From NCBI RefSeq assembly GCF_045037415.1, contig NZ_CP173438.1: a stretch of 64,000 nt of DNA. One strand, written 5' to 3'. The position numbers and the translations under genes are program-made. The stretch is from Escherichia coli (lineage in GTDB: Bacteria; Pseudomonadota; Gammaproteobacteria; Enterobacterales; Enterobacteriaceae). Below the pieces are notes generated by a model. The model was not told where the DNA came from. It ran no database searches and saw only the letters and a list, made by a program, of their open reading frames with translations. Shown in pieces: positions 1-4,151 of this stretch. Positions within the stretch are counted from its first letter, which is position 1. Every line of letters begins with the position of its first letter.

Positions 1-228
1 CGGATAGGTAAAACAAACAGGAAACACCCACAACTGTACGATGTGTACTGCTATTGCTCTAATGTGGAGTGCGGTCACTCGTTTGTGATGAATGTTGCTT
101 TCTCCCATTCCGTTAGTCCAAGCGCGCTGAACGGGCAGGGAAGGGTTAAAGAGCTGATTGATGCAATTCCACCCGAGGAACGGGAAAAGGCTTTAAAGTT
201 GCTGCTGGCTGCGCAAAAGAATGGGTAA
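1..228 (+). CDS. Ogr/Delta-family zinc-finger transcriptional activator, 5' end cut by window edge
   Basis: Reading frame is open from position 1 with no upstream stop; motif Y-x-x-C-x-N-V-x-C-x-x-x-F (YCYCSNVECGHSF) resembles the second Cys pair of phage P2 Ogr / P4 Delta, recalled from memory. Confidence 0.45.
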   Translation, partial: RIGKTNRKHPQLYDVYCYCSNVECGHSFVMNVAFSHSVSPSALNGQGRVKELIDAIPPEEREKALKLLLAAQKNG

Positions 229-907
229 AGTATGCGTCGGGAATGGCCGATCTGTTCCCGGAACCTGAACACAGGATTTCAGTTTATACGGTCATAAAAT
301 TATTATTTTTCAACTGGTTATCTTCTTCATGTTTCACAAACCTTCATAAAATCACACACCTAAAATTAATTATCCATTTAATATCATAGAGTTGCGTATT
401 CAGGCCATAGATTCGACGGACAGTAAAACTGAAAAAAAATGAATTTCTTTTCATTCTTTTCAGTTCCTGTATCGCAGTACATCTCGAGGACTGGCACGGA
501 CTGGCGGTATCGTTTGTAAAAAATCCAGGCTGAAAATTTTTAGTGATATGAAAACCGCAGGCGGGTGCGGTGTAGTGCCGTTTTGGTCTGTCGAGCGTAT
601 ATTTTCCTTTTTCACGATTGCTGCATATCAAAACGAATGTGCAGATATCAGGCCGTGTCAAACCGTGAATCGTGGAGCCTAAATGCCCAAACTACGTTTG
701 TAGACCTAGCTAGGGGAAGGTTTCCACATATACTGCTACCTATCTTCCAGTCGCTGGTGAGGATCAAGGTAAGCTAACTGGTGAACAAGAAAAGTACTTT
801 CGTATCTTGCGTACTCGTTTTTTTTGATTAGTATGTACAGGTAGTAACTGGATGGTGAGAATTCGTCATAACTTATCAAATTGCATGATGTTTATAGAGT
901 ATGAGTA

Positions 908-1789
908 ATGAGTCATAATAAAAAGGAATATGCTAAATTTTTCCGTCGCCCCATTTTTTCATCCTTAGCAAAAGGTAAGGATATTTCGGATTTATTTGGG
1001 AGTTTTGATTCTTACTGCTATGAAACACTGTTTTCAAACAATGATAATAATGAACATGAGATTTCACTAAGGGATTTATTTACATCATTATATGATTTTT
1101 TGCGTCTGAATTATAGAAATGAATATGTTTATAAGACAGCACTTGTCAATAAAATAATATTCGGTAAGCACAGCCCAAAAACAAGTTCGTCGTCCATAGA
1201 GTTACCAATTAAAAACTCTATAGTGGATGTTGCGGTGTTTAATGGTACGTCTACAGCTTACGAGATTAAGACAGAGTATGATTCACCAAAAAGGTTGATT
1301 ACTCAAGCCCCTGATTATTTGGATGTTTTTGATAAAGTGTATATAGTTACACATCCAGAGTATGCAAGTAAATATTGTGCTTTAAATCTCCCCAGAGTGG
1401 GAGTTATGGTTTTGAATAAAAAAGATCAATTGAGTGTCATTAAGGAGGCAGATTCAAATATTGATTATATTAAAAGTGACAGCTTGTTTTCAGTTCTTAG
1501 AAAGGAAGAGTTCTTAGCTATAATAGAAGATTACACTTCAACTAAAATAAATATGCCTAACGGATTGGTTTATGAATATTGTAAAGAGATATTCATGCAG
1601 ATGCCATTAAACATAGCAAATAAATACTTTATCTCTGCTATGAAAAAAAGATGTAACGATAAAGTTTTTTTGGATTATATTTATTCTCTTCCAGCATGTT
1701 TACGTGTTTTAGGTTATGCAACACCATTATCAAGAAAGCAAAAAGAATTCATCATGAATTTGATGGATGTAAAAATTAAAATTTGTTGA
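908..1789 (+). CDS. Hypothetical protein (293 aa) with PD-(D/E)xK nuclease-like motif; cassette gene A
   Basis: Long ORF in AT-rich DNA; motif E98-L-P ... V-D107-V-A-V ... Y-E119-I-K121 (IELPIKNSIVDVAVF...AYEIKTE); no family recognised. Confidence 0.6.
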   Translation: MSHNKKEYAKFFRRPIFSSLAKGKDISDLFGSFDSYCYETLFSNNDNNEHEISLRDLFTSLYDFLRLNYRNEYVYKTALVNKIIFGKHSPKTSSSSIELPIKNSIVDVAVFNGTSTAYEIKTEYDSPKRLITQAPDYLDVFDKVYIVTHPEYASKYCALNLPRVGVMVLNKKDQLSVIKEADSNIDYIKSDSLFSVLRKEEFLAIIEDYTSTKINMPNGLVYEYCKEIFMQMPLNIANKYFISAMKKRCNDKVFLDYIYSLPACLRVLGYATPLSRKQKEFIMNLMDVKIKIC

Positions 1790-1810
1790 TATCCTCAGGA
1801 GTTGTAAGTT

Positions 1811-2761
1811 ATGTATAGCCCATATTTGTATGCGAGAAGTACAGAGTTATTATGCCTTAGGGACCTCGTTGCGAAGGGAGTTAGCCTAAATGGTCTGCTA
1901 CCAATTTTAGAACCAATTAACGTCAATACGAGAAATTTATTAACATGTTTAAATGTTTGGAATTCTGACATAATTGTTATCCTTAATCCTTATCAGGAAG
2001 ATTTTTCTTCACACAATAACGTCTTAACTTTAAATCAAAATTTATCAAGTGTATTAACAAATAAAAATAATATCATCTCTGGATATCTTATTCAGCCCAA
2101 TACAACGATTAATGATATTAATAATTGGTTGAATGCTAACTTAAATAGACGAGTTGCACTTCTATATGATAATCCATCATTATCCAACTCTGATATTCAG
2201 TTGTTGGCGACAAATCAATTGATTAGTTATCATGTTGTTTTAAATAATAAAATGCTTCCTAATCAGTGCGCTCTTCTTCCTTTGTCGAAGTTAATTATTA
2301 TTAGCGATAACTTTAGAAAGTTAGCAAAAAATGCTGATTATAATGGGCCGGAACTTTTCACGCACGCACATCAATTCGTGGGACAAAATTACTTAGGATT
2401 TGGCGATTATACAATTACTGGCCAGGTACTAGATCTTGGAGGTGGTCAACCTTCTGCTGTTGCCGCACATTTGGTGTTCAAGAATTTACAAGCGAATACA
2501 GTTTGGATTCGTCATTTTGTATCAAGCAACACGCAACGAGGAAGTTCAAATGTTACTGCAAAATTTTTAGATGTTTCAGATCAAATTACAAATCTTGTTC
2601 CCCAACATCCAACCCAGTTTGGCAGCAACATTGGTCTTAACTATTATTATTACAATAGTCAACCAACTGTAAGGCATTTCCCTGGGTTGCCAAAAAACAA
2701 ACAGTATCAAATTACTCACCATATTTGTTTCATGCTGGATTTAATAGCAGGTCGTATTTAA
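1811..2761 (+). CDS. Hypothetical protein (316 aa); cassette gene B
   Basis: ORF 22 bp downstream of gene A, same strand and AT-rich composition; N/S/L/Q-rich; no recognisable catalytic motif; 3' end overlaps the integrase 3' end. Confidence 0.6.
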   Translation: MYSPYLYARSTELLCLRDLVAKGVSLNGLLPILEPINVNTRNLLTCLNVWNSDIIVILNPYQEDFSSHNNVLTLNQNLSSVLTNKNNIISGYLIQPNTTINDINNWLNANLNRRVALLYDNPSLSNSDIQLLATNQLISYHVVLNNKMLPNQCALLPLSKLIIISDNFRKLAKNADYNGPELFTHAHQFVGQNYLGFGDYTITGQVLDLGGGQPSAVAAHLVFKNLQANTVWIRHFVSSNTQRGSSNVTAKFLDVSDQITNLVPQHPTQFGSNIGLNYYYYNSQPTVRHFPGLPKNKQYQITHHICFMLDLIAGRI

Positions 2762-3916
2762 TAAGCTAGCGTACCATTCCATCATTACTTGTCGATCTTT
2801 AATATATTGCGCATGATTGTAAGTACCTCGAATAGAGTTCTTATCAACATGCGCAAGCTGCATTTCAATCCAGGCACTTTCAAACCCATGCTCATGCAAG
2901 ATGGTGCTCATGGTATGCCTGAAACCGTGACCCGTTAACCGACCGTGATAACCCAGTAGTTTTATCACTTTGTTGATGCTGGCTTCGCTCATTGGTTTAC
3001 TGACGTCATTCCGGCCAGGGAAAACGAGGCTGTAATTCCCTGTTATTTCTTGCAGCTTTTTCAGGATATTGATCGCCTGAGTTGATAACGGAACCAGATG
3101 GGGGCGGCGTTTCTTCATCCGTTCTTTGGGGATCTCCCATAAGGCATTATCTAAATCAAACTCAGCCCATTCCGCTGCACGTAGTTCAATTGTTCGCACG
3201 CCTGTTAGCATCAACAGCTGCGTGGCGTATTTGGTAACTAAACTGCCCTGATAGTTATCCAGAGCATTAACGAACTCGGGCAACTCGCTTTCAGTCAGGA
3301 ACGGGAAGTGTTGGGTTTTAGGTTTGTTGAGTGCGATAGCTAAATCGGGTGCAAAATTATACTTTGCTCTACCAGTGGCAACAGCATAACGAAGCACTTC
3401 ACCACAGCGGCGGCGGATCTTACTGGTTTGCTCTAGCGCACCTCTTTTCTCTATTTTTTGCAGGACGGTTAGCAGTTCTAATGGTTCAATCTGCTCAATT
3501 GGGCGCTGGCCGATAAAAGGAAAAATATCCTTTTCCATACAATTGAGAACCTCTTTTGCATAACCCTCTGACCAGGTGGCTTTTTTCGATGAGTGCCATT
3601 CTCTGGCCACAGACTCAAAGCTGTTCTCATGCGCGAACTGCAAAGCAATCTTATCTGCTTTTCTGGCTTCACTTGGGTTTATCCCGTTGGCTAACATCGA
3701 ACGCGCTTCATCACGTTTGGTACGTGCCTGTGCCAACGACACATCGCCATATACGCCAAAGGAAATCATCTTAGGCTTACCTGCAAAGCGATAGCGAAAA
3801 CGCCAGCCTTTACTGCCCGCTGTGTCGATCAGGAGTGATAGCCCCATACCATCGTTAAGCGTATAGGGTTTGTCCTTCGGTTTTGCTCTTTTTATTTGGA
3901 TGTCAGATAGCAGCAT
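2741..3916 (-). mobile_element. int: P4-type tyrosine integrase (site-specific recombinase)
   Basis: N-terminus MLLSDIQIKRAKPKDKPYTLNDGMGLSL is typical of P4-family integrase arm-binding domain; C-terminal HGFRHT ... RGTYNHAQY catalytic region; lies next to tRNA 3' end. Start taken at the internal Met (3916) rather than ORF-track Met (3964). Confidence 0.9.
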
Positions 3917-4076
3917 GTGTATAGAAAAAAGATCGAACTCAGTTATACACAATGTTATACGCAAAGATGTATAGATTCCATTAGAAATAATGGTACTTTG
4001 CTGGACGAGTATAAGGAGATGATATCAGTTAAAACAGTGAGTTATGGAATTAATTGAACTTAGTGAGAAGTGTTCA

Positions 4077-4151
4077 TGGTGTCCCCTGCAGGAATCGAAC
4101 CTGCAATTAGCCCTTAGGAGGGGCTCGTTATATCCATTTAACTAAGAGGAC
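4077..4151 (-). tRNA. argW: tRNA-Arg (anticodon CCU), integration target of the island
   Basis: Reverse complement reads GTCCTCTTAGTTAAATGGATATAACGAGCCCCTCCTAAGGGCTAATTGCAGGTTCGATTCCTGCAGGGGACACCA, a 75-nt cloverleaf with CCA end. Confidence 0.85.

Follow-up and report, generated by a model that had tools for sequence, protein, structure and literature searches.

Satellite phage P4 and its relatives are known to carry defence genes in a psu-cos-[hotspot]-int locus (Rousset et al. 2022, PMC9122126), and the P4 gop-beta-cII system protects against lambda and P1, with beta counteracting the toxicity of Gop (PMC9122126) and with cII scoring as MmcB-like by HHpred (PMC9122126, Table S3). Phage-inducible chromosomal islands (PICIs) can carry a diverged copy of a helper capsid protein, as exemplified by Ccm of SaPIbov5, which is 23% identical to the capsid protein of phi12 (PMC6893505). 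Here we describe an island at the start of a 64,000-nucleotide stretch of Escherichia coli DNA (assembly GCF_045037415.1, contig NZ_CP173438.1; hereafter the window), which belongs to a lineage lacking psu, the gene on which the published P4 hotspot search was anchored (PMC9122126). Taking satellite, helper and defence cargo together as one explanation, we consider it probable that positions 1-4095 of the window form the right end (4.1 kb) of a phage satellite of 11,009 bp that has inserted into argW at its 3' end.

That a tRNA-targeted integrative island occupies this site is evident from the orientation of its integrase, a distal repeat and a precise empty site. The single tRNA in the window is tRNA-Arg(CCT), found at 4077-4151(-) by ARAGORN in agreement with the Rfam tRNA model (63.4 bits), and the locus is argW of E. 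coli, since yfdC, mlaA and fadL come next. The initial annotation had placed a P4-type integrase about 160 bp from this tRNA gene and in the same orientation, which proved exact: the open reading frame (ORF) of the integrase spans 2741-3964(-), RefSeq genomes place its start at 3916 (391 aa), and 160 bp separate this start from the tRNA 3' end at 4077, both genes being on the minus strand. Along its entire length the protein shares 40% identity with P4 Int (E value 1e-100); it is 46% identical to IntS of K-12 and 95% identical to the integrase of strain N3. A distal boundary outside the window had also been predicted, with a copy of the tRNA 3' end upstream of position 1. We looked for it in strain SK1144, our reference locus L001 (100% identical over window 1-4200; window position = L001 position - 20,000), and found a perfect 20-nt direct repeat, ATGGTGTCCCCTGCAGGAAT, at L001 13067-13086 and L001 24076-24095 (window 4076-4095), with a spacing of 11,009 bp; it consists of the final 19 nt of the tRNA plus 1 nt. 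The island is thus bounded in genomes identical to the window. As a probe for the empty site we used a synthetic junction with the dsdC flank fused directly to the tRNA, and this junction occurs contiguous in 911 of 5,426 complete E. coli genomes, the set used throughout (100% identity in one), confirming the predicted boundaries.

The content of argW differs among strains, as the initial annotation had proposed: at least 80% of window 1-4200 is present in 420 of the 5,426 genomes and a CPS-53-type intS in 1,864, besides the 911 with an empty site. With the repeat in place and the gene content not shared by all genomes, both objections that had been foreseen came out negative. In K-12, CPS-53 (intS, yfdGHI ... 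torI, pawZ) lies between argW and dsdC, in line with the initial annotation. CPS-53 (also KpLE1) resembles the island in its argW attachment site, its yfdC and dsdC flanks, its size (10.2 kb) and the integrase mentioned above, but its cargo is unrelated, comprising the yfdGHI O-antigen glucosylation genes, tail-fibre remnants and torI, and it has no satellite modules. The AT-rich character ascribed to the cargo was also borne out, with a GC content of 28-33% over ~800-2400 vs. ~45-55% in the flanking core genes. Going beyond that annotation, the island reads as a phage satellite with a cos site and with its AT-rich cassette placed in a hotspot where cargo is swapped.

From attL to attR, the element comprises an AlpA/Vis-like regulator adjoining attL, an orphan 286-aa protein, a capsid homologue, an Icd-like region, two small proteins, an 895-aa primase-helicase, iterons, a 90-aa Ogr/Delta protein, the cassette and, adjoining attR, a convergent integrase. 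The ten genes are each intact, neither att copy has a mismatch, and int is the one gene that runs against the direction of the others; genes for tail, portal, terminase or lysis proteins were not found in the element, the capsid homologue being its only virion-type gene. Kinship with P4 is seen in the following: 1) the regulator matches phrog_2790 (excisionase/regulator) and is 46% identical to P4 ORF88 (Vis); 2) the alpha-type primase-helicase matches DNA primase phrog_1139 (E value 4e-185) and is 37% identical to residues 4-311 of P4 alpha; and 3) the Icd-like immunity region scores 81.1 bits with the Rfam model of the C4 antisense RNA (gathering score 45) and 68.9 bits with isrK (gathering score 50), with a c4-a1b1 match of 43.8 bits just under the gathering score of 46.7, and the cI region is 58% identical to that of P4 when translated and 71% identical as DNA. 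The Ogr/Delta-like gene, which the initial annotation had rightly noticed, has its first 44 nt outside the window, whose edge cuts it, and matches phrog_603, a transcriptional regulator (E value 2e-31). Like P4 (NC_001609) and P4-like satellites, then, the element measures ~11 kb and combines a P4-family integrase beside a tRNA attachment site having a 20-nt core with C4/CI RNA immunity, a Vis/AlpA regulator, an alpha-type primase, an Ogr/Delta-type activator and a cos site, and it has a variable defence slot between cos and int in which a cII-family gene adjoins int. Unlike P4, which has divergent operons and integrates at leuX, the island is co-directional apart from int and resides at argW.

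A second set of differences concerns the genes with which P4 exploits its helper. In tblastn searches of the element, P4 Sid had no match at E<=1 (and none is annotated) and P4 delta had no match, the Ogr/Delta-family protein of the element being a 90-aa single unit nearest to helper-type Ogr; P4 Psu gave a chance-level match within the primase gene (E value 0.56), and P4 epsilon (Epsilon/Ash) gave no significant match, the best being on the wrong strand inside another gene (E value 0.018 over 25 aa). Gop and beta of P4 likewise found no match in the element when the P4 proteins were used as queries. Among the seven P4-like components of SatelliteFinder (PMC10085698), four are present if Ogr is counted as delta, and sid, psu and epsilon are lacking. 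Judging from these comparisons, the element appears to be P4-related in integration, immunity and replication and not in its capsid-hijacking genes, and we file it as a P4-related satellite of variant type rather than as a canonical P4-like element. De Sousa et al. (PMC10085698) mention a 'very distinctive' Type C subfamily in Escherichia, which may be the lineage of the island.

The cos region points to ESSI-2-like phages. Window 424-588 is 73-77% identical to the genome ends of ESSI-2-like Peduoviridae, with matches in Cronobacter phage ESSI-2, Escherichia phages ESSI2_ev015, ev040 and ev129 and Yersinia phage vB_YenM_324. The linear ESSI-2 record has the same 15 nt, GCGGGTGCGGTGTAG, at its start and its end, a terminal direct repeat that is the signature of a cohesive end; in the record of Escherichia phage ESSI2_ev040 (NC_049393.1, ~29624-29665), a Nextera adapter, TCGTCGGCAGCGTCAGATGTGTATAAGAGACAG, is embedded exactly within the cos core, an assembly artefact that reveals where the DNA physically ends. 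All satellite loci fetched, as well as the ESSI-2 terminus, contain the 16-mer GGCGGGTGCGGTGTAG without mismatch, whereas the P2/P4 cos 19-mer GGCGAGGCGGGGAAAGCAC is absent from the element even when up to 3 mismatches are allowed. The 334-aa capsid homologue, a P2-family major capsid protein (gpN family; phrog_70, E value 1.8e-86) which P4 does not encode, has its best matches in ESSI-2-like phages (48% identity), and the satellite Ogr is 50% identical to the Ogr-like protein of ESSI-2 (E value 1e-35). On account of the cos core, the capsid homologue and the similarity of Ogr, we deem ESSI-2-like P2-family phages the likely helpers. The satellite (11.0 kb) and the ESSI-2-like genomes (28.8-30.9 kb) stand at a ratio of ~0.37, which is also that of the P4 and P2 genomes. 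For the other ESSI-2 head, replication and integration proteins that we checked, there was no counterpart in the island; what it has in common with ESSI-2-like Peduoviridae (Seongnamvirus, Quadragintavirus) is the cos core with ~150 bp of flank, the Ogr homologue and the capsid homologue, but those are complete temperate phages of 29-31 kb with tail, terminase, portal and lysis genes, of which the island has none. The 286-aa protein was considered as a homologue of the helper scaffold and rejected for lack of similarity, and OR850886, a small 'phage' record, was considered as a packaged form of the satellite and rejected as its ORFs are a fragment of a helper-type phage.

A diverged copy of a helper capsid protein (48% identity to ESSI-2-like capsid proteins here, 23% to that of phi12 in Ccm) is a feature that the island has in common with PICIs (Ccm of SaPIbov5; PmCI172 and EcCICFT073). 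PICIs have int, alpA, pri-rep and a capsid-morphogenesis gene and use cos for packaging, and one may ask if a Gram-negative PICI would be a better class for the element than a P4-like satellite. Its int, AlpA-like regulator, primase and capsid homologue in the absence of other virion genes do fall within a loose PICI definition, the same combination occurs in the enterobacterial PICIs EcCICFT073 and PmCI172 (PMC6893505, PMC10085698), and sid, psu and epsilon are lacking. A set of int, alpA, pri-rep and a capsid gene is, however, equally compatible with a P4-type element, and the integrase, the C4/CI RNA immunity, Vis and the primase are similar to those of P4 specifically; in addition, the PICI lineage uses HK97/lambdoid-type helpers, whereas the island joins an Ogr/Delta activator to a capsid homologue and a cos of the P2 family, not lambdoid/HK97. 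Neither an rpp gene nor a terS-like gene is among its PHROG or NCBIfam matches, which leave three small or orphan proteins unassigned, and a cargo slot beside cos and int fits the P4 layout (PMC9122126). We thus judge classification as a PICI very unlikely and retain that of a P4-related satellite.

Comparison of sister elements showed that the segment between cos and int is a cargo hotspot holding different defence systems. Strain N3 has the same backbone at argW, 94-96% identical to that of SK1144; homology between the two ends at window 588, 13 nt after the cos core, and resumes at 2768, 27 nt inside the 3' end of int. As this breakpoint of cargo exchange falls inside int, the last ~10 codons of the gene (window 2741-2767) belong to the variable segment and the C-terminal tails of the integrases differ between cargo variants. 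In place of the cassette, the slot of N3 contains a 634-aa Old-type ATP-dependent nuclease (PADLOC Old, E value 2e-55), and two IMG/VR relatives have Kiwa (KwaA, E value 2e-83; KwaB, E value 1.5e-125) and PDC-M36A directly after the same cos core, with the integrase at the opposite end of the element in both.

These exchanges also bear on the question of whether the island, like CPS-53, is simply a remnant that no longer moves and is decaying, fixed in a single clonal lineage and with cargo that has no current function. Such a view could draw on the distribution of the cassette, confined to 421 genomes, many of them labelled ST131 (sequence type 131), with all copies at least 99% identical; on insertion sequences (ISs) found in the cassette of some genomes; on the near-constant absence of a resident helper; and on a clearly truncated relative in Providencia, which keeps half of alpha and has no capsid gene. 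Against it stand the ten intact genes and the perfect att copies, an empty site with flanks that are 100% identical, and variants which, at 5-8% nucleotide divergence, keep every backbone gene intact (89-99% protein identity) together with an exact cos core. Moreover, the precise exchange of cargo at the cos and int borders would require an actively circulating family of elements. We therefore consider a dead remnant improbable.

The cargo in the window is a pair of genes annotated as sce7726 and sce7725. The sce7726 product matches PADLOC cll (E value 1.2e-18) and NF033832 (175.6 bits, cutoff 70), PF26915 is found on its homologues, and it is 39% identical to P4 cII with D107, E119 and K121 invariant, leaving the D-E-K triad intact. 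The sce7725 product belongs to NCBIfam sce7725, and its structural model is a TIM barrel (pLDDT, the predicted local distance difference test, 95) with only generic structural neighbours. Pfam gave nothing significant on either protein itself, and profile searches of both families against Protein Data Bank sequences gave no meaningful match (E > 0.05), neither family having a solved structure. Direct BLASTP of sce7725 against P4 beta yielded no significant match, but hhalign of 49 sce7725 homologues against 38 P4 beta homologues aligned 250 columns with a probability of 90.8% (E value 1.2e-6), pairing an N-terminal Y-P-x-L-x-x-R-x-x-E motif and a G-D motif, and 3 of the 49 family members match Pfam Beta_protein (PF14350) weakly (best E value 0.014). 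These data suggested that sce7725 is a distant homologue of beta, outside the family by Pfam criteria. Gop, a small toxin with two transmembrane segments, had no tblastn match, and there was no third ORF of note in 589-2767. With sce7726 in the cII family and sce7725 a distant beta homologue, the cassette thus appears to be a gop-less relative of gop-beta-cII composed of a cII-like and a beta-like gene. Like that system (gop_beta_cll in PADLOC and DefenseFinder), it combines a cII-family PD-(D/E)xK protein with a beta-family protein next to int in a satellite hotspot; unlike it, it has a very divergent beta-like partner, detectable profile-to-profile only, and its two genes lie 21 nt apart in a single operon and in the same direction, whereas cII of P4 is encoded on the strand opposite gop-beta.

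The association of the two genes extends well beyond this island. Homologues were adjacent in 7/7 independent loci examined (E. coli, Providencia, Paraburkholderia, a Pyrinomonadaceae metagenome-assembled genome and three metagenomic or draft contigs), spanning Proteobacteria to Acidobacteria and, in unrelated phyla, lying outside any satellite; their neighbours include Hachiman, type I restriction-modification (RM), SLFN-type proteins, NACHT, HEPN-Toprim and BglII RM genes. At the level of 50% identity, the sce7725 family comprises 1,489 representatives, of which the best-scoring 150 are all single-stretch proteins of ~270-330 aa, and by structure search it occurs in many phyla. Of the pair, present defence finders would report no more than a single 'cII' orphan. 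In two metagenome contigs a third gene follows the pair, encoding a RES-domain protein in one (L027 3133-5911) and an unassigned 320-aa protein in the other (L029 4074-7040), and these three-gene versions suggest that variable toxins are added onto a conserved two-gene core, as Gop is in P4.

We think it fairly likely that the sce7726/sce7725 pair is an anti-phage system. The pair could instead be an addiction (toxin-antitoxin) module, take part in lysogeny control, which is the historical meaning of P4 cII, or act as an RM-like pair of DNA-modification and nuclease proteins that serves the satellite. We find this group of explanations unlikely given that sister elements hold recognised defence genes in the same slot, that the pair occurs in defence-island contexts of unrelated phyla outside satellites, and that P4 has a homologous system, of three genes, which gives protection from lambda and P1 (PMC9122126); the RM-like version would, moreover, still be defence. 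As to how an anti-phage system of this composition would operate, a scheme in which the sce7726 nuclease is the effector and the sce7725 TIM-barrel protein senses infection or controls the nuclease is one that we offer as a doubtful proposal.

A life cycle can be postulated for the element as a whole. It would sit silent in argW until infection or induction of an ESSI-2-like helper, upon which Int and AlpA would excise it; the excised element would replicate with its own primase, the satellite Ogr would cross-activate late genes, and the helper terminase would package the satellite through the common cos. We surmise that the capsid homologue may take over from the missing Sid and Psu in directing the formation of small capsids, as the size ratio of ~0.37 resembles that of P4 and P2.

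Several considerations weigh against this explanation and temper our confidence in it: 1) excision, packaging, transfer and protection, that is, both the life cycle and the defence role, are inferred from sequence only; 2) the undetectable sid, psu, epsilon and delta mean that the hijacking model of P4 is not simply transferable; 3) ESSI-2-like head modules occur in only 29/5,426 complete E. coli genomes, and a resident helper is therefore usually absent and would normally have to come by infection, and the element is only putatively mobile in its E. coli lineage; 4) for the 286-aa protein encoded upstream of the capsid gene, searches of PHROG, NCBIfam and Pfam detected no relatives; 5) sce7725 has no PADLOC match, and its link to beta consists of the one profile-profile match (90.8%) and the three weak Pfam matches; 6) the role given to the nuclease is a guess, and Gop, the known toxic partner of beta in P4, is missing here; 7) conservation within E. 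coli says little, as the 421 copies of the cassette, at least 99% identical, come mostly from one clone.

The features within the window are collected in Table 1. The integrase-binding sites listed there derive from KTATACRCA, which has only three matches in 44 kb, all 70-135 nt inside the two att cores; since 15/100 shuffles reach the same number, they are not significant by count and remain candidates only. Promoter and terminator scans were near shuffle expectation and uninformative.

Table 1. Features of the argW island and its target within the window
Feature	Position	Strand	Remarks
Ogr/Delta-type zinc-finger late-gene activator, C-terminal 76 of 90 codons	1..228	+	WP_000783295 in SK1144
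cos (packaging) region	424..588	.	last conserved backbone before the variable slot; candidate cohesive-end core GCGGGTGCGGTGTAG at 561-575
Variable cargo slot (hotspot), 2.18 kb	589..2767	.	between cos and the 3' end of int
sce7726 / Phage_P4_cII family protein, 293 aa	908..1789	+	predicted PD-(D/E)xK nuclease-fold core and C-terminal helical domain
sce7725 family protein, 316 aa	1811..2761	+	predicted TIM barrel; probable distant homologue of P4 beta (Pfam Beta_protein)
P4-family tyrosine integrase, 391 aa	2741..3916	-	converges on sce7725, 21-nt overlap
Candidate integrase arm-type sites TTATACACA, TTATACGCA	3937..3963	.	KTATACRCA matches
attR core, right copy of the 20-nt repeat	4076..4095	.	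left copy 11,009 bp upstream in identical genomes; empty-site junction in 911 genomes
argW, tRNA-Arg(CCU)	4077..4151	-	integration target, left intact by the element; ARAGORN, Rfam, annotation in SK1144 and K-12

The general kind of island is already known, and what we add is modestly new, namely a satellite subtype with a likely helper and a gop-less cII/beta-like cassette. Our literature searches, in a collection that lacks most subscription-journal papers, returned no functional description of sce7725/sce7726, of Beta_protein/PF14350, of argW islands in ST131 or of P4-like satellites with capsid homologues, and no paper describing an ESSI-2-type cos or a capsid paralogue in a P4-type backbone. 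It is possible, and we put it forward tentatively, that two things are undescribed: a distinct satellite lineage on ESSI-2-like phages which has P4-type modules for integration, immunity and replication and in which a capsid paralogue replaces Sid and Psu, as in a hybrid of P4 and PICI styles, and sce7726/sce7725 as a stand-alone anti-phage system built from a TIM-barrel enzyme and a PD-(D/E)xK nuclease. If the latter is true, systems of the gop-beta-cII type would share cII and beta as their conserved core, and Gop, RES and other toxins would be optional. The two families sce7725 and sce7726, both widespread and so far 'unknown', are now linked to gop-beta-cII, which is itself only partly understood, and their pair provides a simpler two-gene model for finding out what beta-family TIM barrels do. 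The cos-adjacent defence hotspot of P4 extends to a satellite lineage that searches based on psu and int would probably miss.

With its backbone found in 443/5,426 genomes, the element is carried by roughly 8% of this complete E. coli set. Many complete chromosomes match window 1-4200 at 100% identity, and several of these bear the label O25b:H4-ST131; many of the carriers are labelled ST131, a clinically important lineage. Genes hitherto called 'hypothetical' or 'sce77xx family' can thereby be annotated as parts of a probable satellite, for which a type of helper can be named and whose cassette is a candidate for immunity, which matters for predicting phage susceptibility, e.g. in phage therapy against ST131.

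A few further observations concern the element and its relatives. In several otherwise identical genomes (H1, H3, H5, H6), IS elements interrupt the island region at window ~850-2745; in THO-015, sce7725 is annotated in two pieces beside an IS1, and other genomes have ISEcp1, an IS66-family element or IS4321. Because of these insertions, the cargo is being inactivated or is serving as a landing pad in part of the lineage. In Providencia stuartii (L007-L009, 6700-12340), a truncated relative at the equivalent site beside mlaA keeps half of the primase, a short Ogr, the exact cos core, the cII-like/sce7725 pair and int, with the same protein on >100 contigs; here the cassette seems to have been retained after decay of the satellite.

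Two repeat regions lie in the backbone. A (CCCAG)n microsatellite of ~14 units (L001 13197-13270) is positioned 110 nt inside attL, upstream of the AlpA-like gene, and the backbone span in other genomes of the lineage differs by tens of bases, which may reflect a change in its copy number; the repeat could be a phase-variable switch on the regulatory end of the satellite. Between the primase gene and ogr (L001 19706-19841) are iterons, with ACTGGTAACAGAGGTAACA occurring twice along with 32-nt GTTACC...GGTAACAGA repeats 60-64 nt apart, and these are a candidate replication origin by analogy with ori/crr of P4. Far from the island, at window 37807-37968, two tandem naRNA4 (CssrE / REP-type) matches score above the Rfam gathering threshold; they are ordinary extragenic repeats, unrelated to the island.

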